A stretch of 64,000 nt of DNA from an uncultured bacterium (GTDB lineage: Bacteria; Hydrothermota; UBA3072). The stretch lies in assembly GCA_964534175.1 (NCBI GenBank), contig CAZHNS010000003.1, forward strand, positions 63,939-127,938, given 5' to 3'. Shown piece by piece: positions 24,359 through 49,034 of the stretch (position 1 is the first letter of the stretch; every line of letters starts with the position of its first letter). The notes below the pieces were generated by a model. The model saw only the letters and a list, made by a program, of their open reading frames with translations. It was not told the origin of the DNA and did no database searches. A program made the translations under genes and the position numbers.

Positions 24359-26989
24359 CTATTTAATCAACACCATTTTTTGTTTTTCGCTTTTATTATC
24401 CGATGATACACTTATAAAATACGCGCCATTGGGAAGATTGCTCATATCGATATTTAGATCATAAGTGCCCTGTCTGTCTCCTACAATTTTTTCATCCAAC
24501 CTTATTCCAGCTGTATTGAAAATCTTAAGTTTAACTTGTTCGGAAGCTGAATTGACGAATGAAATATTGCAGATTCCCTTGCTTATTGGGGAAACTTTAA
24601 GGTCAAATTTACCGTTTTCTGACTTGATGTCATTGTCTTCATCGATTCCGGCAGATGCGCGTAACTTACCCCAGATGCGTATGGCATTCGCGGGATTATC
24701 GTTGATGTCTTCTGCCCAGTTTGGGAAAACAACCAGTATTTGAGAACCTCCGCCACTGGCGGCAGCAGGATTTGTTTGGTATGGTTCTATATCAAAAGAT
24801 GCGATTGGATATATTTCGATTATTGATCCGCCGGTGTTCACCGCTGCTCCCAGTACATTCTGAACTGTTTCGCTTTGACTATTTTGGCAGCCTACAAGAT
24901 AGTTTGTACCGTCGAAAACAATAAATGTTAATGATTGGGTCCCTGAATATGGAATAATGGGAACTCCGGAAGCATCGAGAACAGTGCCGTTTTGATGAAC
25001 CCTTGCCCCGTATATATCGGACGCGTTGCTGGTACGTCTGTCTTCCCATGCTACAAGATAATTCGTTCCGTCAAATGCTACTGCCGGTAGATACTGTCCA
25101 TTGTCGGCTGTTGAAATAGCGATACTGCTCGCGTCGATTGGATTTCCGGATTGATTTACTCTTACACCATATATATCCTCCTCAAAAGTACCGGAGCTAT
25201 TATCATACCATACTACAAGGTAATTGGTTCCGTCAAAGGCGACCGAGGGATAATCCTGCGCGAGAGCATCATCGGATATTACAGTTCCGGAAGGACTTAG
25301 AAGGCTGCCGTCCGGTTCTACGAGTGTACCGTAAATATCACGGGCACCATAACCATTACGTTCGTCTGACCATACTACTAGAAAGTTTGTGCCGTCAAAA
25401 GCAACGGAAGGGTATCTCTGTCTGCCTGTTGCAGTAGAAATGGCAATTCCTGGCGGATCGAGAACATTTCCGGATGTAGTAACGCGGGCGCCATAAATAT
25501 CGTTAGTACCACTTCGGTCATCCTGCCATACGACCAGATAAGTAGAATCGTTATCAAAAGCGACCGCGGGGTAACTTTGATTTCCTGTACTTGTGGAAAT
25601 CGCTATCGCGTCCTCATTAAGTTGTTCTCCCGAAGCATCGATAAGCATTCCATATATGTCTGGAGAGAATCCTCCGCTTCGAGCTTCCTCCCAGACTACA
25701 AGATAATTTGTTCCGTCGGACGCGACTGCGGGGTTACTCTGGGACTGAGCAGAAGACGAAATTAGAATTCCATCTCCGTCGGTTACTGTACCTGATGAGC
25801 TTATCCGGCAACCGTAAATATCAGTATAACCTCCGTTTCGGTTGTCTCTCCATGCAGCTAGCCATTGACCGCTGTAAGATATTACTGCTGGTGCTACCTG
25901 TTGAGCATCAATATTGACAATAGGAATGCCCGATGGATCCTGGACTGTTCCTGATGTGTTTACCCTGGTACCGTATATATCGGGATTGCCCGCCACATCT
26001 CTATTGTCATACCATACCACGAGATAGTTTGTACCGTCGAAGCTTACGGAAGGCATGTACTGGTAATCTGCTGCAGTTGATATTGCGATTCCTGCCGGGT
26101 TAAGGACAGTTCCGTCTGTATCAAGAAGAGTACCATAAATATTGTAGTCGGAGCCCGATCGCTTGTCATACCAGACAACGAGATAATTTGTGCCGTCAAA
26201 GTCGATGGAAGGACGATTTTGTTCATCGGAAGCGATTGAAATCTCGATTCCGGACGGATCGAGGACAATACCGTCTTGATCTACCCGTGACCCGTAGATA
26301 TCGTAAGTACCGTTTCGCTTGTCCTGCCATACCACCATATAATTGGTTCCGTCAAAAGAAACGTCGGGAAAATATTTGATAGAGTCAGTAACCGATATGG
26401 CAATTCCCTCGTTGAGTACAGTACCATCTTGAGCAACTCTTGCGCCGTAGATATCATAAGAGGAACCGCCCCTGCTGTCATACCAGACTACAAGATAATT
26501 GGTTCCGTCGAAAGCAACTCTTGGACTCATCTGAGAGCCGGCCGCGTCGCTGACTGCAAAGGGCTCATCATCTAAAAGTTCTCCCTCTTTAGAAACTCTT
26601 GCACCATAAATATTATGCGGGTTAGCTCCCTCTCTATCATGCCATACTACAAGATAATTAGTTCCGTCGAAAGCAACGTCCGGGTAAGGATCAGTGTAGT
26701 CGCATTTTGCGATTAATATACCGGCGGGATCGAGAAGATTACCGTTTTCGTCGATTCGAGCTCCATAGATATCCCAACCCCCGGCACGGCAATCATTCCA
26801 GACGACAAACGCCGTTGTATCGTCGGTCGCAATACGTGAACCAGCCTGGTTTTTTATAGCCGGAACATACACAAGAGTCGTATCGATTAAAAATCCGCCA
26901 GCTCGGAGATCCCTTGATTGTGGCCAAATATTTACCGTTGCAAGAAAAGTAAATAACAGAATAGCAATAGCAATCAATTTTTTATTCAT
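24359..26989 (-). CDS. Secreted protein with about 13 tandem ~50-aa beta-propeller-type repeats (FDGTNYLVVW.D.R.G..DIYG.RV) and T9SS C-terminal sorting domain
   Basis: Signal peptide; repeat consensus resembling TolB/PD40-like blades; C-terminal ...LKIFNTAGIRLDEKIV...YDLNIDMSNLPNGAYFISV...K matches Por-secretion tail. Confidence 0.7.
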   Translation of the reverse strand: MNKKLIAIAILLFTFLATVNIWPQSRDLRAGGFLIDTTLVYVPAIKNQAGSRIATDDTTAFVVWNDCRAGGWDIYGARIDENGNLLDPAGILIAKCDYTDPYPDVAFDGTNYLVVWHDREGANPHNIYGARVSKEGELLDDEPFAVSDAAGSQMSPRVAFDGTNYLVVWYDSRGGSSYDIYGARVAQDGTVLNEGIAISVTDSIKYFPDVSFDGTNYMVVWQDKRNGTYDIYGSRVDQDGIVLDPSGIEISIASDEQNRPSIDFDGTNYLVVWYDKRSGSDYNIYGTLLDTDGTVLNPAGIAISTAADYQYMPSVSFDGTNYLVVWYDNRDVAGNPDIYGTRVNTSGTVQDPSGIPIVNIDAQQVAPAVISYSGQWLAAWRDNRNGGYTDIYGCRISSSGTVTDGDGILISSSAQSQSNPAVASDGTNYLVVWEEARSGGFSPDIYGMLIDASGEQLNEDAIAISTSTGNQSYPAVAFDNDSTYLVVWQDDRSGTNDIYGARVTTSGNVLDPPGIAISTATGRQRYPSVAFDGTNFLVVWSDERNGYGARDIYGTLVEPDGSLLSPSGTVISDDALAQDYPSVAFDGTNYLVVWYDNSSGTFEEDIYGVRVNQSGNPIDASSIAISTADNGQYLPAVAFDGTNYLVAWEDRRTSNASDIYGARVHQNGTVLDASGVPIIPYSGTQSLTFIVFDGTNYLVGCQNSQSETVQNVLGAAVNTGGSIIEIYPIASFDIEPYQTNPAAASGGGSQILVVFPNWAEDINDNPANAIRIWGKLRASAGIDEDNDIKSENGKFDLKVSPISKGICNISFVNSASEQVKLKIFNTAGIRLDEKIVGDRQGTYDLNIDMSNLPNGAYFISVSSDNKSEKQKMVLIK
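24900..26700 (-). repeat. Intragenic tandem DNA repeats (~150-bp period) encoding the blade repeats
   Basis: Recurring g(t/g)(t/g)ccgtc(a/g)aa(a/g)gc(a/g)ac...gggta blocks roughly every 150 bp. Confidence 0.55.
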
Positions 26990-27787: not shown

Positions 27788-28132
27788 TTAGCTTTTTAGA
27801 GCGCCACCTACCGCTCCGCCTATAAGGCCGAGTAATCCGCAGTACAGCATAGCGACAATAATAGTGCCGCCCGATATGGCGCCTAAAATTACTCCGAGTA
27901 ATGCGCCCGGAGGACCTCCGAACATTGCGCCCCATACTCCACCCGCAGCGGTGAAGAATAGAGTAGCAATTACTCCTAGTATTGTTCCGCTCAAGAAACC
28001 TGCAAAAGCTCCTCTTCCGGCACCTTTAGCGATAATACCCGCAATAAAACCTGCGAGTATATAGCCTATAACTGGAATATGCCCAAGAAATGCCATAGCT
28101 ACCGCCCCTACGAAAACAGCCAGCAAAAACAT
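27788..28132 (-). CDS. Small Gly-zipper-rich membrane protein
   Basis: 114 aa, GxxxG-rich TM helices; antisense ORF 27864-28064 considered spurious. Confidence 0.4.
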   Translation of the reverse strand: MFLLAVFVGAVAMAFLGHIPVIGYILAGFIAGIIAKGAGRGAFAGFLSGTILGVIATLFFTAAGGVWGAMFGGPPGALLGVILGAISGGTIIVAMLYCGLLGLIGGAVGGALKS

Positions 28133-37249: not shown

Positions 37250-38488
37250 TTGATTTTTATGTTAACAAGGAAATGTATTTTTTTATTTGTTCTTAGTATA
37301 TCTATGCTTGTATTTCAATCATGTAAATTGTTTTCTGGTCCGGATTATGATATTTTAGCCAGAAGTACATCTTTTGAGGATGTTCAAGCGGCGGTTGATT
37401 CGGCTGAAAGCGGGGATGTTGTGAGAATTCCGGAGGGCAGCAGCACCTGGACTTCTAGACTGGAAATACCTGACGATAAAAGGATAACTTTATATGGCAG
37501 TGGACAGGGTACAACCGTTATTTCATCCGACACATTAGCGCCCAGCAGTTTAATCAATATGGGCAGTTCCGGCTCACGTGTTACCAATATGGGATTTATG
37601 CTTGCTAACGATAACGGAAATGGTATTACGGTTAGAGGAGAAGGTTGGAGGGTAGATCACTGCAGGTTTGACAATATGATTGAACACATTATTGAAGGCG
37701 TCAGCGCACGTGGATATCGCTCTGAAGGAGGATGTCCGGTCGGAGTGGTCGATCATTGTGAATTTAATAATACCAGGGCATTGGTTGTAGGTGATGCAAG
37801 CCTTATGGCCAATAGTATATGGGCTGAGCCTCTCGGACTCGGAACTAATAACGCCGTCTTTATTGAAGATTGTGTATTCGATTATACTCAATTTAGCAAC
37901 GCGATTGATGCTAATTACGGCGGAAGATATGTGTTTCGTTATAATATTATAAATGATGCCTATATTGAAGCTCATTCTCTTCAAGGAACACACAGAGCTA
38001 CCAGAAGCTGGGAGATTTACGGAAATACAATTAACCAGGTGGAAAGAGCTATGTGGGCACCTTTTTTCTTACGTGGGGGGACCGGCGTTGTTTTTAACAA
38101 CACTATAACCGGAGACTGGTCCTCGGGACCGGCAATAGTTGTCGATAACCGAAGAACTTTTGAGGCTTTAGGTGAAGGTGGGTTGTGTGATGGTACCTCA
38201 CCCTGGGATGGCAATGAAGATTCGACAGGATATCCTGCCCGTGACCAGATTGGACGGTCTACAGACGAGTGGCTATGGACAGATGAAAACCCCTACCCGC
38301 CACAGGAACATGATCCTTTTTACCAGTGGAATAATACACATGAAGGAAACAATATTAATGTCTATGTGCATAATGATTGCGGTGTTCATATAAAGGAAAA
38401 CAGAGATTATTATAACAATGTAGAAAAACCAGATTATACCCCTTACACTTACCCTCATCCGTTAATAGAGGAATGGGGCGGTAATTAG
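37250..38488 (+). CDS. Secreted right-handed parallel beta-helix (pectate-lyase-fold) protein
   Basis: Signal peptide; repeated NGITVRGEGWRVDHCRF / VVDHCEFNNT / VFIEDCVFDYT coils typical of PbH1 repeats. Confidence 0.5.
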   Translation: MIFMLTRKCIFLFVLSISMLVFQSCKLFSGPDYDILARSTSFEDVQAAVDSAESGDVVRIPEGSSTWTSRLEIPDDKRITLYGSGQGTTVISSDTLAPSSLINMGSSGSRVTNMGFMLANDNGNGITVRGEGWRVDHCRFDNMIEHIIEGVSARGYRSEGGCPVGVVDHCEFNNTRALVVGDASLMANSIWAEPLGLGTNNAVFIEDCVFDYTQFSNAIDANYGGRYVFRYNIINDAYIEAHSLQGTHRATRSWEIYGNTINQVERAMWAPFFLRGGTGVVFNNTITGDWSSGPAIVVDNRRTFEALGEGGLCDGTSPWDGNEDSTGYPARDQIGRSTDEWLWTDENPYPPQEHDPFYQWNNTHEGNNINVYVHNDCGVHIKENRDYYNNVEKPDYTPYTYPHPLIEEWGGN

Positions 38489-38589: not shown

Positions 38590-38832
38590 ATGCCCACTTA
38601 TGAGTATGAATGTCTAAAATGTAAATATAAATTTGAAAAATTTCAAAATATGACAGAAGAGCCCTTAAAGGTCTGTCCACAATGTGGTGGTAAATTGCAT
38701 AGATTGATTGGTACAGGCGCGGGTATCATTTTTAAAGGTGAGGGTTTTTATCATACGGATTATAAAAAACAGGGCAGCAGTGATGCGGTTAAGAAGGGTA
38801 AAAGAGAAAGTAAAAGTGAGAGTAAAGACTAA
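38590..38832 (+). CDS. FmdB-family zinc-ribbon protein
   Basis: MPTYEYECLKCKYKFE...CPQCGG signature. Confidence 0.7.
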   Translation: MPTYEYECLKCKYKFEKFQNMTEEPLKVCPQCGGKLHRLIGTGAGIIFKGEGFYHTDYKKQGSSDAVKKGKRESKSESKD

Positions 38833-38859
38833 AAGTAAGCAATCCCTAATACTTTTTTA

Positions 38860-39654
38860 ATGCTGTTTTTTCTTTTTTCTTTTTTTCTTCTTTTATTATA
38901 TTTAGCGTTTAAGTGTTATGAACATTTTAAGGTCTATCGTCCGAGAGACAATTTAGTTGCTTTTCCTGACAGCTACAATATAGAATTTGAAGACGTAAAT
39001 TTTTCATCTCGCGATAAAGTTTTGCTCAACGGCTGGTTCATTAAAGGAACTTCCGGGAGAGTTATTCTTTTCTTTCACGGCAATTTTGGTAACATTTCGC
39101 AAAGATTGGATATTATCAATGAGTTGTATTCTCTTGGATATAATGTTTTTATCTTTGATTATAGAGGTTTTGGCAGGAGCAATGGTGTCCCTTCTGAGAA
39201 AGGTTTATACAATGATGCCTTAGGAGCTTATGATTACCTTAAGGAAAGAGGATATAAAAATGAAGATATTATTCTTTTTGGTAGATCTCTGGGCGGTGTT
39301 GTTGCAATATTCCTCGCAAGTGCGGTTAAGGATTTTAGAGGTTTAATAGTCGACAGTTCTTTCTCTTCTGCACAAGATTTAAGTTATGATTTCTTCGGTT
39401 TTAAATTTCCGAGGTTTATAATATCAAACAGGCTTGAGTCCATAAAAAGAATAAAAGATATAAAAATTCCGAAATTAATTGTACACAGTGAAGATGATAA
39501 TTTAATACCTTTTCATCATGGAAAGAGGTTATTTGAGATAGCAAGCGAACCTAAGAAATTTCTAAAGATTAAAGGTTTTCATAATTCTTGTATCCAGGAT
39601 TCTAAAGATATATACATGGCTGGAATTAAGAATTTTTTGGAGAGTTTAGAATGA
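38860..39654 (+). CDS. Alpha/beta hydrolase (BAAT/dienelactone-hydrolase-like)
   Basis: HGNFGN oxyanion region, GRSLGG nucleophile elbow, downstream Asp/His. Confidence 0.7.
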   Translation: MLFFLFSFFLLLLYLAFKCYEHFKVYRPRDNLVAFPDSYNIEFEDVNFSSRDKVLLNGWFIKGTSGRVILFFHGNFGNISQRLDIINELYSLGYNVFIFDYRGFGRSNGVPSEKGLYNDALGAYDYLKERGYKNEDIILFGRSLGGVVAIFLASAVKDFRGLIVDSSFSSAQDLSYDFFGFKFPRFIISNRLESIKRIKDIKIPKLIVHSEDDNLIPFHHGKRLFEIASEPKKFLKIKGFHNSCIQDSKDIYMAGIKNFLESLE

Positions 39655-39929
39655 TGTTTAACCACGAAATACAGTAAACCCCATTCGCTCTTTTTAATTT
39701 GCGTTAAAAAAAACACACGAGAAAACATAATTGATGATTTTAACTCCGTACTCATCATAATTCAGGCATTTATCTTTGCTTTTTTCAAAAACTTATTGAA
39801 TCTGTTATATCCTTCTTTATGCCTGAGGGTTGACATAAATTAAATCCTTAAGTATTTTTAATAATAAAAAGTTAATGCCATTAGATGTTTTTGGTAAAGA
39901 CAAAACTATCACAAAAAAGGAGGTTTTGT

Positions 39930-41240
39930 ATGATTGCTAAATATAAGTTCATGGTACTCTGTTCGGCAATTCTTGTAACTGTGTTGCTTTTTACTTCCTG
40001 CGGCGGTGACATTAGTGGACTTGATCTTATTGAACCAACTGGCGGAGAGGAAGTTTCGTTGCCTGTGTCACTATTCTGGACAAAAGTTGAAGATGCCTCT
40101 GGTTATGCAGTAGAAGTTGATACCGCTACTAATTTTGAATTCCCTGTGGTTTCCGTTGAGGTTTCTGATACCACTTATACTCTGACGGACCTAAATACGC
40201 TTAAATATTACTGGCAGGTCTTTGCGCTTGATGGAAATGGCAGGATGAATGATTTCTCGGCTCTGGACTCCTTTGTGGTCTCAGGCGCTGCGTATCCAAG
40301 GAATCTATTAACAAGTATTCAGGTTTTAGAAGATCCTCAGTCGCTTGACATTACTCCGAATGGTGCAGAGATCTGGGTCAACCACTGGGGGCAGTACGAT
40401 ACCCTTGTTTATGTTATATCGACAGTGAGCAATCAGGTGACCCATACGATTCCGGTTACCAATGTCGGTGATAATGAGTTGAGAATTACCAGTGATGGTA
40501 ATTTTGCCTACTACTGCGGTGTCTGGAATATGGATAGTGCCGGTATCCTCGAAATTTCTACGTCTGGTTATAACCAGACGAGGGTACTCGGATATCTTGA
40601 AGGTGAAGATCCGCCGGTTAAGGTTGGCCCGGAAGGCTACGGGGTGGCATTGACCCAAGTGAACGACATCATCTATGCAGCGCATATGGCGACGGCCGGG
40701 GACGGCTGTATCACGAAGTTCGATGTCTCGAGCGGGGCATTGATCGACAGCGTTCTTCTGCCCTGGATCATGGATGTCGACCTGAACCACGCCGAGACAA
40801 AACTCTATGCGGTCAACCAGAGCGATGACATCTTCTATGAACTCGATCCAACGACGATGACTGTCAACCGACAACTTTCGGTCGGTAACGGACCCGAGCT
40901 TATTCTGATCACTTCTGATGATGAATATGCTTTTATTTCGCATCTTAATGATGATGTTTATGTTGTTGATCTCTCAAGTCTTACGAAAGTTACTCAATTT
41001 GATCCGGATATTGGGGAATTTGGTATGGCTTTTACCCCGGATGAGAAATATCTTTTCTTGTGCGATTACGGTTCTGATTATATCAGCGTTTACGATGTTG
41101 ACGACCCAACGAATCCGGTTATGATTGAGAAACTCGAGTTTACGGATGCTGGTTCGTTCACTGAACTTGTTTTTAATGCCGATGGTTCCCGAGCCTATGT
41201 AGTCGAGTCTCACGGCTATATATATGTTTTAGAGAAGTAA
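39930..41240 (+). CDS. Lipoprotein with beta-propeller (YVTN/lactonase-like) repeats; contains ~320-bp high-GC mosaic segment
   Basis: Lipobox LFTSCGG; start at ATG 39930 (RBS AAGGAGG) rather than ORF-track 39885; segment ~40590-40910 is ~55% GC with GC3-rich codons. Confidence 0.5.
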   Translation: MIAKYKFMVLCSAILVTVLLFTSCGGDISGLDLIEPTGGEEVSLPVSLFWTKVEDASGYAVEVDTATNFEFPVVSVEVSDTTYTLTDLNTLKYYWQVFALDGNGRMNDFSALDSFVVSGAAYPRNLLTSIQVLEDPQSLDITPNGAEIWVNHWGQYDTLVYVISTVSNQVTHTIPVTNVGDNELRITSDGNFAYYCGVWNMDSAGILEISTSGYNQTRVLGYLEGEDPPVKVGPEGYGVALTQVNDIIYAAHMATAGDGCITKFDVSSGALIDSVLLPWIMDVDLNHAETKLYAVNQSDDIFYELDPTTMTVNRQLSVGNGPELILITSDDEYAFISHLNDDVYVVDLSSLTKVTQFDPDIGEFGMAFTPDEKYLFLCDYGSDYISVYDVDDPTNPVMIEKLEFTDAGSFTELVFNADGSRAYVVESHGYIYVLEK

Positions 41241-41248
41241 TCTGCTCC

Positions 41249-41299
41249 GAAGATATTTATATAGCTGGAATTAAGGATTTTCTGGATAGCCTGGAATAG
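41249..41299 (+). pseudogene. Remnant duplicate of the 3' end of the alpha/beta hydrolase gene (EDIYIAGIKDFLDSLE*)
   Basis: About 80% nucleotide identity to 39603-39654 (KDIYMAGIKNFLESLE*) including stop; no upstream ORF. Confidence 0.5.
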
Positions 41300-41365
41300 T
41301 GAGACGGAAAAGGATTGATACGGATATTCAAAGAGAGAAAGGAGCATAAAGAGAAGTCAGAGCCG

Positions 41366-41510
41366 TCGAAAATTAAAAATCAAATATCAAAGTGCAAAAT
41401 TACAAATCAAAGTTCAAAAATGAAATAAAAACGAAAAACTTTAAAGGACATGATGTAATTTTGCATTTTTATTTGGCGTTTTACTTTTTAAATTTTAATA
41501 TTTAAATTTC
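41366..41510. repeat. AT-rich imperfect palindromic dispersed element, copy 1 (family B), ~110 nt upstream of lolC/E
   Basis: aaattaaaaatcaaa...acaaatcaaagttcaaaaatgaa / ...attttgcatttttat...ttttaaattttaatattt; arms are mutual reverse complements; shared with 50942-51090 and 56306-56485. Confidence 0.65.
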
Positions 41511-41621
41511 ATAAAAAATTTGGGAGTTCTTACAGCATATTTTGGTGTATTTGTTTGAAATTCAATGCTATGATACACATTACCCCCTTGCCCAAAGATA
41601 TAAAAAGGATATACTGATTAT

Positions 41622-42848
41622 ATGAAAAAGCTGTTTAATATCGAATATTTTCTTGCTAAAAGATATATACGAATTAAAAAAGGAGAGGGTTTCAGGTCTT
41701 TAATAACACTTTTTGCAGCCGGAGGCATATCTTTGGGAGTTGCTACGCTTTTAGTTGTTATGTCTGTAATGAATGGTATGCAGACTGACCTTAAAAACAA
41801 AGTTCTTGGAGCAAGCGCCCCTCTTACAGTTTTGACAATAGATCAAAAATTTATAAAAGATTGGGAAGGTATAGTGGATACTTTGAAAGAAAGAGTGCCA
41901 GAGATTAGGGATGCGACACCTTATATTTTTGAAAAAGCACTTTTGAAACATGAGGATAGAACTGACGGAGCTATAATAAGAGGAGTTGACCCTGCTTCCT
42001 TTTCTCTGGTTTCGGATATTCCCGATAATATTGAAAAAGGAGAGTTTGATCTTTCCGGTAGAAAAGTCGTTCTCGGAAATTATCTGGCGAGAAGATTGTG
42101 GGCTCATGTAGGAGATACGATAACCATTTCATCTCCTTTTTCTTCTGCTCCTACTCCATTTGGTTTTCTTCTGCCTGCGGAAGATTTTGTTCTCTCCGGG
42201 GTTTTTGACATGGGGATGTACGAATACAACGCGACTATTGCAATAATATCGATTGAGAATGCAAAAAGTCTTTTTGGGATCGACGGAGTTACCGGTATAG
42301 ATTTTACAGTGAGTGATCCCTACCGGGCTCCTGATCTTGCAATTGATATCGTAGCCCAGCTTGGATATCCTTATCGGGTAATGAATTGGATGGAAAGGAA
42401 TAGAATCCTTCTTAGAGCTCTTGAAATCGAAAAAAAGGTAATGTTTATAATACTTACTTTAATAATAATTGTTGCCGCTTTCAATATTATTTCTTCTCTG
42501 GTTCTAATTGTGCTGGCAAAGATGAGAGAAATAGGAATCCTTAAAGCTCTGGGTGCTTCTGCTTCTTCTGTTACAAGAATATTTCTGATAGATGGTTTGA
42601 TTGTGGGTGGGGGAGGTGCCTTTTTTGGGGTTTTGATTGCCTGGATATTATGTTTTCTTCTCGGTAAGTATAAGTTCATTGATTTACCTTCTGATGTTTA
42701 TTTCCTTACAAAACTACCGGTGGAAATGCAGTTACCTGATTTTCTTTTAGTTATATTTTCAGCTATAGCTTTATCTCTCCTGGCTGCTTTGTATCCGGCA
42801 AGAAAAGCTGCCGGACTTGATCCTGTAGAGGCGATAAGAAATGAGTAA
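41622..42848 (+). CDS. lolE: Lipoprotein-releasing system permease LolC/LolE (FtsX-like)
   Basis: N-terminal TM, large periplasmic MacB-like domain, C-terminal 3 TM FtsX module; adjacent lolD. Confidence 0.8.
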   Translation: MKKLFNIEYFLAKRYIRIKKGEGFRSLITLFAAGGISLGVATLLVVMSVMNGMQTDLKNKVLGASAPLTVLTIDQKFIKDWEGIVDTLKERVPEIRDATPYIFEKALLKHEDRTDGAIIRGVDPASFSLVSDIPDNIEKGEFDLSGRKVVLGNYLARRLWAHVGDTITISSPFSSAPTPFGFLLPAEDFVLSGVFDMGMYEYNATIAIISIENAKSLFGIDGVTGIDFTVSDPYRAPDLAIDIVAQLGYPYRVMNWMERNRILLRALEIEKKVMFIILTLIIIVAAFNIISSLVLIVLAKMREIGILKALGASASSVTRIFLIDGLIVGGGGAFFGVLIAWILCFLLGKYKFIDLPSDVYFLTKLPVEMQLPDFLLVIFSAIALSLLAALYPARKAAGLDPVEAIRNE

Positions 42849-43515
42849 TATTATAACGGCACTAAAGGATGTTAAAAAAGGTTTTTTGTCCGGAAAAGAG
42901 GAAATAAACGTTCTGCAGGGTATAAATTTGGAAGTCGAGGAAGGCGATTTCATTACAATAAGCGGTCCATCTGGTTCAGGAAAGAGTACACTTCTCCACA
43001 TATTAGGCGGTCTTCTGCATCCTGACCAAGGAGATGTTATTCTTCAGAATAAATCTCTTTATGCGCATTCGGATCAGGAACTTGCGAAGATAAGGAATGA
43101 AAAAATAGGATTTATATTTCAGTTCCATCATCTCCTTCTTGATTTTACTGTGATAGAAAACTTGGTGATACCTCTTTTGATAAAAGGCACCACTTTTGGA
43201 AAAGCTTCTAAAAAGGCGGAGGAATTATTAGGCCTTGTGGATCTTAGACACAGGGTACATGCCAAGCCCAGAACTCTTTCAGGAGGAGAAAGACAGAGAG
43301 TCGCAGTCCTTCGAGCTATTATAAATGATCCCTTATTGCTGCTTGCAGATGAACCCACGGGCGATTTGGATCGGGCACACTCAAATGTGGTTTTAGAGAT
43401 GTTGCGCCAAATTCATCGCGATAAAGGTATGACAGTGATTCTCGTAAGTCATAATCAGAGGGTTGCAAAAATGGGCGAAAAAACATATAATTTAATAGAA
43501 GGAAAATTAAAATGA
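42841..43515 (+). CDS. lolD: Lipoprotein-releasing system ATP-binding protein LolD
   Basis: Walker A GPSGSGKST, signature LSGGERQRVAV, Walker B LLLADEPTGDLD. Confidence 0.85.
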   Translation: MSNIITALKDVKKGFLSGKEEINVLQGINLEVEEGDFITISGPSGSGKSTLLHILGGLLHPDQGDVILQNKSLYAHSDQELAKIRNEKIGFIFQFHHLLLDFTVIENLVIPLLIKGTTFGKASKKAEELLGLVDLRHRVHAKPRTLSGGERQRVAVLRAIINDPLLLLADEPTGDLDRAHSNVVLEMLRQIHRDKGMTVILVSHNQRVAKMGEKTYNLIEGKLK

Positions 43516-43979
43516 AATGTGAATTATGCGGAGCAAATAACGCAAAATACAAATATTATGAAGTAGATTCTGATACAGTTCGAGAAATAAATATATGCGA
43601 ACAGTGCGCCAGAGAAAAAGGCGTAGATATTAAGAGTAAAGAGGAATCCGTTGTGGTTGAAAGCAAGACGTGCCCTGGTTGTGGTCTTACTTTTGGGGAA
43701 TATAAAGATTCGGGAAGCCTGGGGTGTGCTGAGTGTTATAAGAATTTTCAAGATCAAATCAAGGTATTTCTCAAAGAATCACAGTTGGGAATATTGCATA
43801 AAGGGAAAGAACCTGTTAGAAATAGTAAGGTTATTTTTGTGAAGAAGGAAATTATGGAGATGAAAAAGAAGCTGGATGATTATGTGGAAGATGAAAAGTT
43901 TGAGGAAGCTGTAAAGTTAAGGGATAAAATTGAAGCAAGAAAAGAAGAACTTAAAACTATCAGGGAAAAAAATGATTGA
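43512..43979 (+). CDS. mcsA: McsA-like protein-arginine kinase activator (zinc fingers + UVR motif)
   Basis: CELCG...CEQC and CPGCG...CAECY zinc fingers, C-terminal UVR-like EEAVKLRDKIEARKEEL; precedes mcsB-clpC. Confidence 0.7.
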   Translation: MKCELCGANNAKYKYYEVDSDTVREINICEQCAREKGVDIKSKEESVVVESKTCPGCGLTFGEYKDSGSLGCAECYKNFQDQIKVFLKESQLGILHKGKEPVRNSKVIFVKKEIMEMKKKLDDYVEDEKFEEAVKLRDKIEARKEELKTIREKND

Positions 43980-45012
43980 TTCTCTCATAGATCATTTTCC
44001 GGTTTGGTTAGAAAACATAGGACCTTATTCGGAGATTATTTTATTTTCTAAGGTTTCTCTTTATCGTAACTTAGGAGGATATAAGTTCAATAAGAGAAAT
44101 TCGGATAAGGAAAGAGAAGAAATTTTGGATTTGCTTATTGAGGGTATGGACGCGCTTTCTTCTTTTGAGAAAGTCATTCCCTTGAAGGGCCTTAAAGATA
44201 ATGAAAGAGAACTTTTTGCCGAAAGGGATTTTCTCTCGAGAGATGACTTGAGGGATTCCCGCTTTCTCGGGTTAGGTCTAAACGACCTGCAAAACAATGT
44301 TATTGTTTTAAACTCGAAGGAACACATTAAAATATCTTGTGTGTCAGGCGAATTGTCCCTCAAAGAGACTTATTCTAAGTGTGATAGTCTTGATGATGAG
44401 CTAAATGATGAATTTGGATTTGCGTATGATAAAAGAATAGGTTTTCTTACTTCTTCGACCGATAAGGTCGGAACAGGAATGGTTGTTTCAGCAGTTGTTC
44501 ATCTGCCGGCTCTTGTTATTACCGGTAAATTCATAGACGTCATCGATGATCTTGAAGATTCTCTTTTTTCTATAGGAGGAGTTTTTAACGTAGGTGAAAC
44601 TGTCGAAGGAAGTTATTTTAAATTAAGCAATAAATTTACATTGGGTGTTTCTGAAGAAGAAATATTGAAAATGTTCGAAAACAAGATTAAGAGTATAATT
44701 GAAAAGGAAGTGGATAGTAGAGAATATTTAACTCAAAAAGTGGGTTATGAGACTGAAGATAAGATATGGAGATCTTATGGTATCTTAAAGAATGCCAGAC
44801 TTCTATCCGTAACAGACTTCCTTAATTTAACTGCTGCCGTAAGACTTGGTGTAAGTTTGGGAATTGTAAAGGATATTAGTATTAAGGATTTGAACATATG
44901 GCTTTTCCAAGGGCTTCCGGGTCATTTAAGCGTCCTAAATGAAGAGGTCAAGAATAAAAAAGAAGAAAATATTCTGAGAGCGAGATTAATAAGGAACAAT
45001 TTAGGAGGATAA
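43972..45012 (+). CDS. mcsB: McsB-like ATP:guanido phosphotransferase (protein arginine kinase) with non-canonical signature
   Basis: Phosphagen-kinase-like fold (RNLGGYKF..., DKVGTGMVVSAVVHLPALV); start at ATG 43972 overlapping mcsA stop by 8 nt. Confidence 0.65.
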   Translation: MIDSLIDHFPVWLENIGPYSEIILFSKVSLYRNLGGYKFNKRNSDKEREEILDLLIEGMDALSSFEKVIPLKGLKDNERELFAERDFLSRDDLRDSRFLGLGLNDLQNNVIVLNSKEHIKISCVSGELSLKETYSKCDSLDDELNDEFGFAYDKRIGFLTSSTDKVGTGMVVSAVVHLPALVITGKFIDVIDDLEDSLFSIGGVFNVGETVEGSYFKLSNKFTLGVSEEEILKMFENKIKSIIEKEVDSREYLTQKVGYETEDKIWRSYGILKNARLLSVTDFLNLTAAVRLGVSLGIVKDISIKDLNIWLFQGLPGHLSVLNEEVKNKKEENILRARLIRNNLGG

Positions 45013-45016
45013 AAAT

Positions 45017-47467
45017 ATGTTTATGGATGAGCGTTTTACAAAAAAGTTAATAGACGTTGTTAAAATATCAAAGGATTTGGCGCGTGAAGCCGGGTTGGGC
45101 GAAGTAACGCCAGTTATCCTTTTACTTGCTATATTAAGACACGGAAACAATATCGCAGTTACCGTTATCGAAGAAGTGGGTGTGGATGTTGAGATACTTG
45201 AGAATAGGATTTTAAAACTCGTTAAAAGTAATAGAGATATATTGATCGTAGAACAGCCCATTGGATTGTCAGAGGATTCTCTGAATATCCTTGAGGAGGC
45301 TAAAGAAGAGGCTTTGATGCTTGGTAGGCAGATAATAGGCACGGAGCATCTTTTGCTTTCTTTGCTTAAGGCAAAAGAAGGTGCGTTTATCGAAATTTTA
45401 AAACCAGAAGAGCTCGATTACTATTTAGCGAAGCAGATGCTGCTTGACCTTTTTGATAAGGAAAAATCGCCCGATAAGGTACAAGAAAAATCAAAACCTT
45501 CTGTTGATAGGGCCTTGGAATTTTATACAAGAGATTTAACCGATCTTGCAAAGAGAGGAAGAATTGACCCTGTTATTGGTAGAGAATCTGAGATGGAGAG
45601 AGTCATTCAGACTTTATGTCGAAGAAAAAAGAATAATCCGGTGCTTGTAGGTGAGCCCGGGGTTGGTAAAACCGCAATAGTTGAAGGTCTTGCGCAGAGA
45701 ATTATTATCGGTGCGGTACCCAAGATGCTGCAAAACAAGAAAATACTTTCTATGGATCTCGCTTCTGTTATAGCCGGAACTAAATATCGCGGTCAATTTG
45801 AAAAGAGGTTAAAACAGATTTTAGAATCATTGAAAGATTCCGAGAACATACTTTTTATTGATGAGATGCATACTATCGTAGGAGCAGGGGCGGCTGAAGG
45901 AGCCATAGATGCTTCTAATATGCTTAAGCCTGTTTTAGCCAGGGGAGAAATTCAGACCATTGGAGCGACTACCACTGAGGAATATAGAAAATATATAGAA
46001 AAAGATGGAGCTCTGGAACGCCGTTTGCAGATGGTTCTTATAGATCCTCCTACAATAGATGAAACAATAGATATATTAAATGGTATTAAACGTAAATATG
46101 AAGATTTTCATAAAGTTACGTATACTGATGAAGTAGTTAAAGCAACGGTTAAACTTTCCTGTCAATATATAGCTGATAGAAATCTTCCTGATAAAGCGAT
46201 TGATGTCTTAGACGAGACGGGAGCCAAGGTTAGGTTAAGGGAGACAAAAGTTCCTGATGAAATAGTATCACTTGAGGAAGAGTTGCGTAAAGTTAAGGAA
46301 GAGCTTCTGAGAGCCAGAGAAGAAGGAAAATATGAAGTTGCAATAGAACTGCGGGATAGAAGAGATGAAATCGAAGGTAAATTGGAGAAGAGTCTAGAAG
46401 ATTGGGGAAAATACGGTGCTCTAAAGAGGGTTGAGGTCTTGGAAGAAGATATAAGAGAAGTTATCTCTCTCTGGACAGGAATTCCTCTAAAGAGACTCAG
46501 AGAGGAAGAGACCGAACGACTTCTTTCTATGGAGGATGAAATTAAAAAGAGACTTGTTGGACAAAGTGAAGCAATCAGAGTGGTCTCTAAGGCGATTAGA
46601 AGAAGCAGGGCTGGTCTTCGGGATATGCGAAGGCCGCTGGGGGCTTTTCTTTTCCTTGGCCCTACGGGAGTAGGAAAAACCGAGCTTGCGAAACAACTTG
46701 CAAGATTTCTCTTTAACACCGAAGAGTCTCTAGTCAGGATTGATATGAGTGAGTTTATGGAAAGATTTAATGTTTCCAAGTTGATAGGGGCTCCTCCGGG
46801 GTATGTAGGATATGATGAAGGTGGACTTTTGACCGAAGCCGTCAGAAGGAGACCTTATTCTGTAATTCTTTTGGATGAAATAGAAAAAGCTCATCCTGAT
46901 GTATATAATATCCTTCTTCAGGTTTTTGATGAAGGTATGCTTACGGATGCATATGGAAGAAAAATCTCCTTTAAAAATGCAGTTATTATTATGACTTCGA
47001 ATATAGGAACGAAGGAGATAATGCGAGGAACGTATGTTGGGTTTAAAAAACCCGATAAAGGAATTAAATATGAGGAAATGAGAGAATATCTGCTGGAGGA
47101 AATTAAAGAAAGATTCAGTCCTGAATTCCTAAACAGAATAGATGAAAGCATTGTTTTTAAATCACTCCACCGGGAAACGATGGCTTCTATTGTCGATATA
47201 TTTTTCAATGAGGTCAGAGAAAGAGTTGAGGAGAAAGGATTCGAAATTTCTCTCACAGACGAAGCAAAAGAGTTCTTAATCGAAAAAGGTTTTGATCTGG
47301 AATATGGGGCGCGACCTCTGAAAAGAGTTATGCAGAGACAATTGGAGGATAAATTAGCAGAAGGATTTTTAAAGGGGAAGTGGAAAAAGGGAAACAAAAT
47401 TGTAGTTTCCAGAGAGGGTGATGACTTAATATTCTTCTCGTCTCGTCCTGTTGCAGAAGTTCTCTAA
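45017..47467 (+). CDS. clpC: ATP-dependent Clp protease ATP-binding subunit ClpC
   Basis: Two Clp_N repeats, two AAA+ modules (GEPGVGKT; GPTGVGKT), UVR linker, ClpB/C signature. Confidence 0.9.
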   Translation: MFMDERFTKKLIDVVKISKDLAREAGLGEVTPVILLLAILRHGNNIAVTVIEEVGVDVEILENRILKLVKSNRDILIVEQPIGLSEDSLNILEEAKEEALMLGRQIIGTEHLLLSLLKAKEGAFIEILKPEELDYYLAKQMLLDLFDKEKSPDKVQEKSKPSVDRALEFYTRDLTDLAKRGRIDPVIGRESEMERVIQTLCRRKKNNPVLVGEPGVGKTAIVEGLAQRIIIGAVPKMLQNKKILSMDLASVIAGTKYRGQFEKRLKQILESLKDSENILFIDEMHTIVGAGAAEGAIDASNMLKPVLARGEIQTIGATTTEEYRKYIEKDGALERRLQMVLIDPPTIDETIDILNGIKRKYEDFHKVTYTDEVVKATVKLSCQYIADRNLPDKAIDVLDETGAKVRLRETKVPDEIVSLEEELRKVKEELLRAREEGKYEVAIELRDRRDEIEGKLEKSLEDWGKYGALKRVEVLEEDIREVISLWTGIPLKRLREEETERLLSMEDEIKKRLVGQSEAIRVVSKAIRRSRAGLRDMRRPLGAFLFLGPTGVGKTELAKQLARFLFNTEESLVRIDMSEFMERFNVSKLIGAPPGYVGYDEGGLLTEAVRRRPYSVILLDEIEKAHPDVYNILLQVFDEGMLTDAYGRKISFKNAVIIMTSNIGTKEIMRGTYVGFKKPDKGIKYEEMREYLLEEIKERFSPEFLNRIDESIVFKSLHRETMASIVDIFFNEVRERVEEKGFEISLTDEAKEFLIEKGFDLEYGARPLKRVMQRQLEDKLAEGFLKGKWKKGNKIVVSREGDDLIFFSSRPVAEVL

Positions 47468-47473
47468 TTTGAA

Positions 47474-48256
47474 ATGGGAAAGAGCATTTCGATAGTTAAT
47501 CAGAAAGGTGGGGTGGGTAAAACAACGACTGCAGTAAATTTAGGGGCCGCTCTCGCTCTTTACAATCAGCATTGTCTGATAATTGACATGGACCCACAGT
47601 CGAATGCTACAAGTGGTTTAGGACTTACGGGTGTATCACCTACTATATACGATGTACTCGTAAAAGGGAAAGATCCCAAAAAAATAATTAAAAAAACAAA
47701 CGTTGAAAACTTGGATGTTATACCCTCGGATATCTCTCTCGTAGGCGCCGAAGTTGAACTTGTAGATGTTAGAGGGAGAGAAATGCAACTCAAGAGAAGG
47801 ATAATGCCTCTTAAAAGGGAATATGATTTTATTTTAATCGATTCTCCCCCCTCACTTGGTTTGCTTACTGTAAATTCTCTGGTTGGGGCGGATTCTGTTT
47901 TAATTCCAATCCAGGCTGAATTTTATGCGATGGAAGGTTTAAGTAAACTTTTAAATACGGTCAGAAATATCCAGCGGGAGTTGAATTCCAGATTGACTAT
48001 CGAAGGTGTACTTCTGACACTTTTTGATACAAGATTGAATCTCGCTCATGAGGTTACAGACGAGGTCTGTAAATATTTCGGAGATAAGGTATATGAAGTA
48101 ATAATTCCAAGAAATGTTACGTTGGCAGAAGCGCCAAGTTATGGAAAGAACATTTTTGATTACGATTCAAGATCAAGAGGTGCTGAGGTATATAAAATGC
48201 TTGCAGAAGAGGTAATAAGAAGGAATGGCAAGAAGGGCGCTTGGCAAAGGGTTTAA
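47474..48256 (+). CDS. parA: Chromosome partitioning ATPase ParA/Soj
   Basis: Deviant Walker A KGGVGKTT. Confidence 0.85.
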   Translation: MGKSISIVNQKGGVGKTTTAVNLGAALALYNQHCLIIDMDPQSNATSGLGLTGVSPTIYDVLVKGKDPKKIIKKTNVENLDVIPSDISLVGAEVELVDVRGREMQLKRRIMPLKREYDFILIDSPPSLGLLTVNSLVGADSVLIPIQAEFYAMEGLSKLLNTVRNIQRELNSRLTIEGVLLTLFDTRLNLAHEVTDEVCKYFGDKVYEVIIPRNVTLAEAPSYGKNIFDYDSRSRGAEVYKMLAEEVIRRNGKKGAWQRV

Positions 48257-49034
48257 TGCCCTAATCCCATCGGTAGAAGAAGATAAAGTACCGATAGGAA
48301 AGGTCTTTCATTCTCCCTTACAGCCCAGGAAAAAGATTAATGAAGAGGATTTAAAAGAGCTGGTTGCTTCTATAAAGCAGAATGGTATCCTGCAGCCTGT
48401 TCTACTCAGAAAGATCGAAGAGAATAAATATGAGTTAGTGTATGGCCACCGTCGTTTTGAAGCAGCAAAGAGAGCAGGCCTTAAAGAAATCCCCGCAGTT
48501 TTCCGGCGTCTTTCTGACAGAGAAGTTCTCGAAATTGCTATTATTGAAAATATACAAAGGGAAGATTTAAACCCTATGGAGGAAGCTAACGCTTATTATA
48601 ACCTGAATGTGGAATTCGATCTTACTCAGGAAGAAATAGCCAAGAGAGTTGGTAAAGCAAGGACAACTATAACCAACAAGATGAGATTGCTATCACTTCC
48701 GAAAGAAGCTCAGCAAGCTTTGTCCGAAAATAAAATAACTGAGGGTCATGCAAGAGCTCTTTTAGGTTTTAAAGATGAAAATAGAATTTTAAAAGAGTTG
48801 AAAAGTATTATAAGTGGAGATAAAACTGTAAGGGAAGCAGAAAAAGCTTCCAGAGTTAAGAAGAAAAAAAGGCAGATATCTTCCGAGTATGAAGACTTAA
48901 GGGAAGAACTTATGCATTTGTTTGGCACTGAAGTGAGAGTAGAGACCGGGAAAAAAAGAAATAAATTGATTATAGAATTTTATTCAGATCAGGATTTAGA
49001 GAGAATCTATAATATAATAAAAGGAAAGAAATAA
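48225..49034 (+). CDS. parB: Chromosome partitioning protein ParB/Spo0J
   Basis: ParB box GILQPVLLRK..YELVYGHRRFEAAKRAG and HTH region. Confidence 0.85.
   Translation: MARRALGKGFNALIPSVEEDKVPIGKVFHSPLQPRKKINEEDLKELVASIKQNGILQPVLLRKIEENKYELVYGHRRFEAAKRAGLKEIPAVFRRLSDREVLEIAIIENIQREDLNPMEEANAYYNLNVEFDLTQEEIAKRVGKARTTITNKMRLLSLPKEAQQALSENKITEGHARALLGFKDENRILKELKSIISGDKTVREAEKASRVKKKKRQISSEYEDLREELMHLFGTEVRVETGKKRNKLIIEFYSDQDLERIYNIIKGKK

Follow-up and report, generated by a model that had tools for sequence, protein, structure and literature searches.

A probable recombination mosaic with a GC-rich allele in a predicted beta-propeller lipoprotein gene of an uncultured Hydrothermota bacterium

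Mosaic genes formed by homologous recombination between species are well known from penA of Neisseria and pbp2x/pbp2b of Streptococcus, and allelic dimorphism or exchange of segments occurs in surface lipoproteins and outer-surface proteins such as ospC of Borrelia and tbpB/porB of Neisseria. A comparable locus was found on 64,000 nucleotides of contig CAZHNS010000003.1 (assembly GCA_964534175.1) from an uncultured bacterium of the Hydrothermota, referred to below as the window, in a gene predicted to encode a beta-propeller lipoprotein. About 250 bp of this gene consist of a GC-rich allele (allele A) that is shared with a number of relatives, while other relatives carry a divergent allele of ordinary composition (allele B) at the same position. 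This patch is almost surely a real recombination mosaic rather than an artefact, and it is probably an import whose GC content reflects a foreign origin. It is a familiar kind of mosaic gene and reveals no new mechanism; what makes it noteworthy is the clean resolution, the divergence of the genomes that share the patch, and a common core of 58 bp that hints at selection on a loop of the protein but does not prove it.

As in the penA and pbp2x/pbp2b mosaics, a short and highly divergent block lies in frame within an otherwise closely related gene, is common to several species, has breakpoints that vary by lineage, and gives a tree in conflict with that of its flanks. Unlike those mosaics, the patch has no known selective agent and its donor species is unsampled. 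Its hosts are uncultured WOR-3-like bacteria that are ~75% identical in neighbouring genes, and it is compositionally distinct, with a GC content at third codon positions (GC3) of 0.7 vs 0.33. With ospC and tbpB/porB the locus shares a predicted lipoprotein product, two deeply divergent classes within one species, recombinational exchange, and a loop as the part that differs most. It departs from them in having two classes only, not many, and in a modest amino-acid divergence between alleles of ~27% under clear purifying selection. A search of the literature for comparable cases in metagenomes returned nothing specific.

The preliminary description of this DNA had reported a GC-rich and GC3-rich patch at 40590-40910 with the reading frame maintained, and had proposed as its cause either recombination with a donor of higher GC or chimeric assembly. 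The patch is real. In a sliding scan of the window the top 320-bp stretch of the 64 kb was 40580-40899 with 55.3% GC (mean 37.4%, SD 4.7; runner-up 51.2%), the stretch 40590-40910 has 54.2% GC, and the open reading frame (ORF) runs intact through it. The excess is synonymous: GC3 reaches 0.77-0.80 at 40635-40814 in 30-codon windows, vs 0.17-0.5 elsewhere in the gene, with a drop to 0.17 in its 3' part, and GC at second codon positions (GC2) is not elevated across the patch (0.2-0.47). Over the best 60 codons the propeller gene attains a GC3 of 0.77, while the maximum among the 44 other long ORFs of the window is 0.53. The GC content of 33-36% first given for both window and gene was too low: the window has 37.4%, positions 40001-41000 have 46%, and the gene as a whole is atypical of the window, its GC3 of 0.45 being the highest of 45 long ORFs (mean 0.33, SD 0.03). 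Nor is the GC of the patch typical of the conserved core of the protein family, because sister lineages encode the same core with a GC3 of 0.38-0.44.

Orthologous DNA was fetched from ~30 contigs of relatives and a codon alignment was built, in which the block keeps the reading frame and occupies the orthologous place in a syntenic gene; it is thus a replacement, not an insertion. Outside the patch, relatives of both allele classes are 85-92% identical to the window at the nucleotide level. Over the patch, class A as a whole is 94-100% identical to the window, its members L001/L016/L020, L075, L024, L026 and L007 being 94-98% identical, with a GC3 of ~0.70, whereas class B (L018/L019, L067/L068 and L074) is 63-69% identical with a GC3 of 0.38-0.44, and sliding identity plots show that the divergence from close relatives shifts abruptly along the gene. 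At four-fold degenerate sites the window and L001/L020 differ at 34 of 92 positions in the N-terminal flank, 1 of 37 in the patch and 14 of 42 in the C-terminal flank (Fisher p = 2e-5), the gene outside the patch giving 48 of 134 in all. Between the window and class B, four-fold differences in the patch are saturated (0.69-0.77). The neighbouring genes of the window and the L020 genome differ at 0.49-0.70 of four-fold sites and are 70-78% (~75%) identical in nucleotides. Since the copies of allele A are nearly identical at synonymous sites while their hosts are only ~75% identical, allele A must be far younger than the split of its hosts.

Both alleles are also present within one species. L019 and L020 are 99-100% identical in flanks of more than 10 kb and 63% identical in the patch, where the A copies of this species have a GC3 of 0.6-0.9 and the B copies 0.2-0.5. 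At the protein level, ~17 of 87 residues are consistently distinct between the alleles, and the biggest difference lies in a loop with a one-codon indel. Neighbour-joining trees, which were built without bootstrap but agree with the site patterns, place the window with P0002-P0009 for the flanks and with the distant P0012 for the patch; class B groups in the patch tree with the outgroups P0010, P0011, P0013 and P0018, which makes allele B the resident type of the clade. The recombination proposed at first was thus borne out by the jump in divergence, the conflict between trees, a maximum chi-square scan (below) and the co-occurrence of both alleles in one species.

The presence of both alleles in one species and their mutual saturation at synonymous sites would also be expected if they were an ancient balanced polymorphism, inherited vertically across speciations with no recent transfer. 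However, vertical inheritance predicts that A copies are at least as diverged as their hosts, and in species ~75% identical these copies differ at 0.00-0.17 of four-fold sites, as compared with 0.33-0.42 in the gene flanks and 0.5-0.7 in the neighbouring genes. The nested breakpoints described below argue for repeated exchange as well, and such a polymorphism is highly improbable. Allele A has spread recently and horizontally, as its copies are nearly identical at synonymous sites in genomes that are not.

The limits of the patch were set by informative sites, by maximum chi-square and by painting relatives at 65 diagnostic A/B sites, and are collected in Table 1. The window matches allele A in an unbroken run at 77 of 80 informative sites, and the segment chosen by maximum chi-square was not equalled in any of 200 permutations (Fisher p 1e-15 to 1e-21); its GC3 in the window is 0.71. 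The extent first given for the patch was therefore slightly too wide. Upstream of the 5' junction of the window there are five class-B diagnostic sites at 40592-40606, and triplet scans extend the B-type run to 40613. This junction falls in a low-confidence loop of the structural model (predicted local distance difference test, pLDDT, 57; aa 241-250) with an indel among relatives. On the 3' side, identity to class B recovers to 87-98% from ~40863-40893, and the end of the import cannot be set more finely because there are no diagnostic A/B sites beyond 40867. Since one junction of the window falls in the loop at aa 241-250 and the other immediately ahead of the following blade, what was imported would correspond to roughly two structural blades of the model.

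Table 1. Positions in the window of the gene, the recombinant segment and its junctions, the conserved stretches, the antisense ORF, and the extent of allele A in the window and its relatives
Feature	Position	Strand	Remarks
Predicted lipoprotein gene	39930-41240	+	436 aa from ATG 39930; mechanical ORF begins 39885
Recombinant patch, allele A	40623-40869	+	GC3-rich; aa 247-329, roughly blades 3-4; site scans and allele painting
5' junction interval	40614-40622	+	class-B-type GYLEGED codons upstream; diagnostic A sites from 40623
3' junction interval	40870-40892	+	loosely placed; last diagnostic A site 40867; precedes conserved GNGPE-ILIT
A-core, 58 bp	40682-40739	+	common to every allele-A carrier; codes HMATAGD-GCITKFDVSSGAM
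Upstream conserved stretch	40455-40538	+	0.90-0.97 mean pairwise nucleotide identity among related species
Downstream conserved stretch	40893-40949	+	0.91-0.95 mean pairwise nucleotide identity
Antisense ORF, 205 aa	40326-40943	-	not a gene; no Pfam hit, broken in most close relatives tabulated
Allele A in window, L070, L071, L078	40623-40867		painting
Allele A in L026 (contig end ~40724)	40623 to contig end		painting
Allele A in L001, L075	40592-40867		painting
Allele A in L024 (contig end ~40832)	40592 to contig end		painting
Allele A in L076 (P0003)	40592 to ~40772		painting
Allele A in L072 (P0006)	40592 to ~40732		painting
Allele A in L069, L002/L017	40679/40682-40739 only		painting
Allele A in L018, L067, L074	none, all B		painting

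Painting resolved six A/B arrangements in the segment, five of which include allele A. The core common to these five holds the loop that is most divergent between the classes, including the one-codon indel. Carriers of the core comprise not only genomes ~75% identical in neighbouring genes but also L066 (P0012), which in the flanks of the gene is no more than 64-69% identical to L001 and to the window. Over 40681-40775 L066 is 86% identical to allele A, while the remaining blocks of its gene give 66-75%, and its core block has a GC3 of 0.65 vs 0.39-0.46 elsewhere in the same gene.

An assembly chimera, the second cause proposed at first, would have joined reads of a co-occurring organism of higher GC to the gene. 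Assemblers do struggle at the patch, as seen from metagenome contigs that break in or beside it (L006/L007, L024 and L026) and from a 10-bp deletion in L028. However, L070 (SRR26074178) and L071 (SRR26074165) are colinear with the window over 39044/39217-41402 at 99.1-99.5% identity, and L078 (SRR14802574) paints identically to the window; these three are independent per-run assemblies, 99.1-100% identical to the window, with the same junctions. The same type of 5' junction recurs in L026, which belongs to a separate lineage and project. Furthermore, at least five species from several projects carry allele A, in frame, at the orthologous position, and the databases hold no organism with a fully A-type GC-rich gene that could have supplied such reads. 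With identical junctions in assemblies from three other runs, the chimera was rejected and its probability is practically negligible. The case is a warning that contig breaks and frameshifts at such sites may reflect real mixtures of alleles.

The deletion in L028 (L028:690-700, window 40691-40700; GACGGCCGGG) lies between two GACGGC direct repeats in the A-core and frameshifts the gene. L026 and L007 match contigs of the same population at 100% identity and are intact at this site; L007 begins exactly at the deletion point and L026 ends ~30 bp downstream of it. These observations suggest a population with both the intact and the frameshifted variant, or else a local assembly problem.

The patch is best explained by the following course of events. 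A divergent member of the orthologous family to which the lipoprotein gene belongs would have donated a segment of ~250 bp through homologous recombination (gene conversion), with the exchange anchored in the two conserved stretches of Table 1, which are the most conserved nucleotide stretches of the gene and bracket the patch. The GC richness would be the signature of a donor lineage of ~50% GC, not yet eroded in the AT-biased host. WOR-3-like relatives of such GC exist, and one of them, L004 (52.5% GC), shows GC3 values of 0.58-0.73 across the three regions of the gene that were compared. Codon usage points in the same direction: with tables from relatives of 46-52% GC the patch scores -1.50 to -1.69 log2 per codon, and with the host table -1.99, while in the flanks the opposite holds and the host table fits better. 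Thus the proposal of a higher-GC donor is supported indirectly, by this fit and by the ordinary GC3 of the alternative allele, while the donor sequence itself was not found. Four of five features listed for a mosaic gene made by homologous recombination were observed at this locus, the fifth being an identified donor.

Several results weigh against this course of events. No lineage was identified that carries the block in its native context. A phmmer search of 1.84 billion representative proteins returned no donor but only members of the same family, the best outside the carriers of allele A being 66% identical over the patch, and a search of a 5.8-billion-protein database with P0012 as query returned the same 22 clusters of the family and again no donor. 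The nearest block in a non-carrier, that of P0012, sits in a divergent gene on a background of 38% GC, which is not high. Derived changes among the A copies are only mildly AT-biased, with 15 changes from G/C to A/T (S>W) and 8 in the reverse direction (W>S), although these are few and their polarity was assigned by majority rule only. Across its whole length the gene shows a higher GC3 and a lower synonymous divergence than its neighbours, which also fits a hotspot of GC-biased gene conversion. Moreover, consistent differences between the alleles are limited to ~17 of 87 residues, so they do not demonstrate selection on the core.

The hotspot deserves separate consideration, since GC-biased gene conversion or a similar local force could have made the high GC3 in place on a native allele. 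According to Lassalle et al. (2015; PMC4450053), recombining bacterial genes tend to be GC-richer, and the locus resembles the cases considered there in combining intragenic recombination with GC3 raised across a whole gene, the propeller gene having the top GC3 of the window. It also agrees with such a process that the gene is a patchwork in which the nearest relative shifts along its length, and that it is less diverged than its neighbours at four-fold sites. The difference from those cases is that the GC excess of the patch is tied to one allele and not to the locus, the alternative allele being AT-rich at third positions. In the same species and across many lineages, this position is taken by allele B, whose GC3 of 0.2-0.5 is ordinary, so that a locus-wide elevation is not seen; another recombinant block of the gene (39948-40001) shows no rise in GC; and the patch tree sets allele A apart from its hosts. 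The jump in GC3 from ~0.4 to ~0.75 also greatly exceeds the effects of GC-biased gene conversion at the genome-wide level, which are much smaller. For these reasons an origin of the GC richness in place is unlikely, and import from a GC-richer lineage is preferred.

The gene has other signs of exchange beyond the GC-rich patch. Between L019 and L020 there is a second divergent block, L019:1201-1650 (about window 39560-40001), which is 78-87% identical when all else is 99-100%. It takes in the intergenic DNA upstream of the gene together with the codons of the signal peptide, so the 5' end of the gene and the promoter region also seem to have been exchanged. Its part within the gene, at 39948-40001, is the block without a rise in GC3 mentioned above. 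The whole propeller gene is less diverged than its neighbours (38590-49034), with four-fold differences of 0.14-0.40 vs 0.47-0.73 against L020, L019 and L067, and this gap is smaller against the closer L017 and L069. Along the gene, the relative nearest to the window switches every 100-200 bp. Taken together, the switching and the low divergence suggest that the entire gene is a patchwork of exchange between species.

That the same core is kept in every mosaic may mean that selection maintains the encoded loop. This loop reads HMATAGD in allele A and N-x-G-x-P/A-D-D-H/N in allele B, and the order of strands in the structural model makes it probably a B-C loop, on one face of blade 3. One could go further and suppose that the core is a positively selected module which was repeatedly swept across species and even genus-level boundaries, the flanking imports being trimmed by later recombination. 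This is possible but rather doubtful. If it were true, the locus would record, in an uncultured phylum, a sweep specific to a gene segment, and a phage or ligand that recognises the loop may have been its driver. The persistence of allele B alongside A and the 10-bp frameshift in L028 would then be other outcomes of the same conflict. In any case, the locus is an unusually clean natural case of gene flow below the level of the gene between uncultured species whose identity lies well below that at which homologous recombination usually operates, and exchange across such divergence was apparently enabled by two short, highly conserved anchors in one gene. It indicates that scanning for composition can detect events of ~250 bp, and it offers a concrete target for studying selection on a lipoprotein family, namely one propeller loop with two alleles coexisting in a species.

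An overlapping functional element, such as an antisense gene, a structured RNA or a regulatory DNA site, might force and conserve G or C at third positions, and it would agree with this that the patch lies within the 205-aa antisense ORF and that synonymous sites are nearly invariant among the A copies. However, the stops of the antisense frame correspond to the sense codons TTA, CTA and TCA, which are avoided by a patch with G/C-ending codons. A TCA at 40728 breaks the antisense ORF in most of the close relatives tabulated, including the A carriers L001 and L075, and in L074 it is broken at 40782. With no Pfam match and with interruptions in most of these relatives, an overlapping antisense gene was rejected, and the ORF is, as had been supposed, a by-product of composition. 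Folding of the patch gave a z-score of -0.05, with 45 of 100 shuffled sequences folding as well, and Rfam returned nothing below E = 0.7 at 40300-41300. Over the whole 64 kb no Rfam family reached its gathering score, hence no tRNA, rRNA, riboswitch or other known RNA was found. Since sister lineages with allele B do without any such element, there is only a very slight chance that one accounts for the patch.

The targets of diversity-generating retroelements (DGRs) resemble the patch in being short, sharply bounded variable segments in genes for binding-type proteins. The patch differs from them in having no template copy in the 64 kb, in differences of all base types, and in forming discrete alleles and not a cloud of variants. 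Conversion by a DGR or from a silent cassette was rejected, as no second copy of the patch or paralogue is present in the 64 kb and none in the related loci fetched, which extended up to +/-10 kb. A DGR target was also rejected on the template copy and the base spectrum, the A/B differences not being confined to template adenines. Carriage by a mobile element was searched for as well, and no exact 35-mer was found in viral contigs and no blastn match in phage or plasmid collections.

Regarding the gene itself, the true start is almost certainly ATG 39930 and not the 39885 of the mechanical ORF, judging from the sequence: AAGGAGG precedes it 6-7 nt upstream, and all database homologues begin there, at MIAKYK. 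The extension 39885-39929 contains an in-frame stop in L006/L026. The assignment as a lipoprotein is predicted from the alignment and the model. A cysteine (C39 in ORF numbering) is invariant in 23 sequences and follows a hydrophobic helix (aa 20-36), and residue -3 of the lipobox is F, where L, V or I is canonical. The signal peptide is followed by an Fn3/Ig-like domain (~aa 50-132) and a seven-bladed beta-propeller of YVTN/WD40 type (~aa 140-450). The AlphaFold2 model has a pLDDT of 82 and 28 strands after aa 140, and Foldseek matched it to seven-bladed WD40/YVTN propellers with a target-based TM-score (TMt) of 0.8-0.87. Pfam gave a weak match to PF10282 (28.9 bits, cut-off 21.7), which is confined to one pair of blades. 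The family is small, with 22 clusters among 5.8 billion proteins, and its named members are annotated as candidate division WOR-3 or Stahlbacteria. The gene order Zn-ribbon, alpha/beta hydrolase, propeller, LolC/E-like permease, LolD-like ATPase, McsB, ClpC, ParA, ParB is conserved.

A secondary GC3 peak of 0.60-0.77 occurs at window 40371-40460 in most of the relatives tabulated, whatever the GC of their genomes, the exceptions being L005 and L022 (0.40) and L023 (0.53). It codes for a highly conserved stretch of protein (WVNHWGQ...VISTxTNQVTH) and, unlike the main patch, is a property of most of the family. The next GC-richest stretches of the window are 25216-26850, 27802-28121 and 37984-38303 (0.49-0.51). 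The first lies in ORF 24359-26989 and the third in ORF 37250-38488, where GC at first codon positions (GC1) and GC2 are elevated too, and both are probably due to amino-acid composition rather than import; 27802-28121 is outside the tabulated long ORFs.

Downstream of the gene, the AT-rich intergenic region 41369-41514 contains imperfect direct repeats (23 nt, with 27-nt spacing) and an imperfect inverted repeat of 36 nt, and the contigs L070 and L071 both terminate within it, at 41402/41403. The spacer between the propeller and LolC/E genes differs among relatives, with ~380 bp in the window, 133 bp in L067 and two additional genes in L069.

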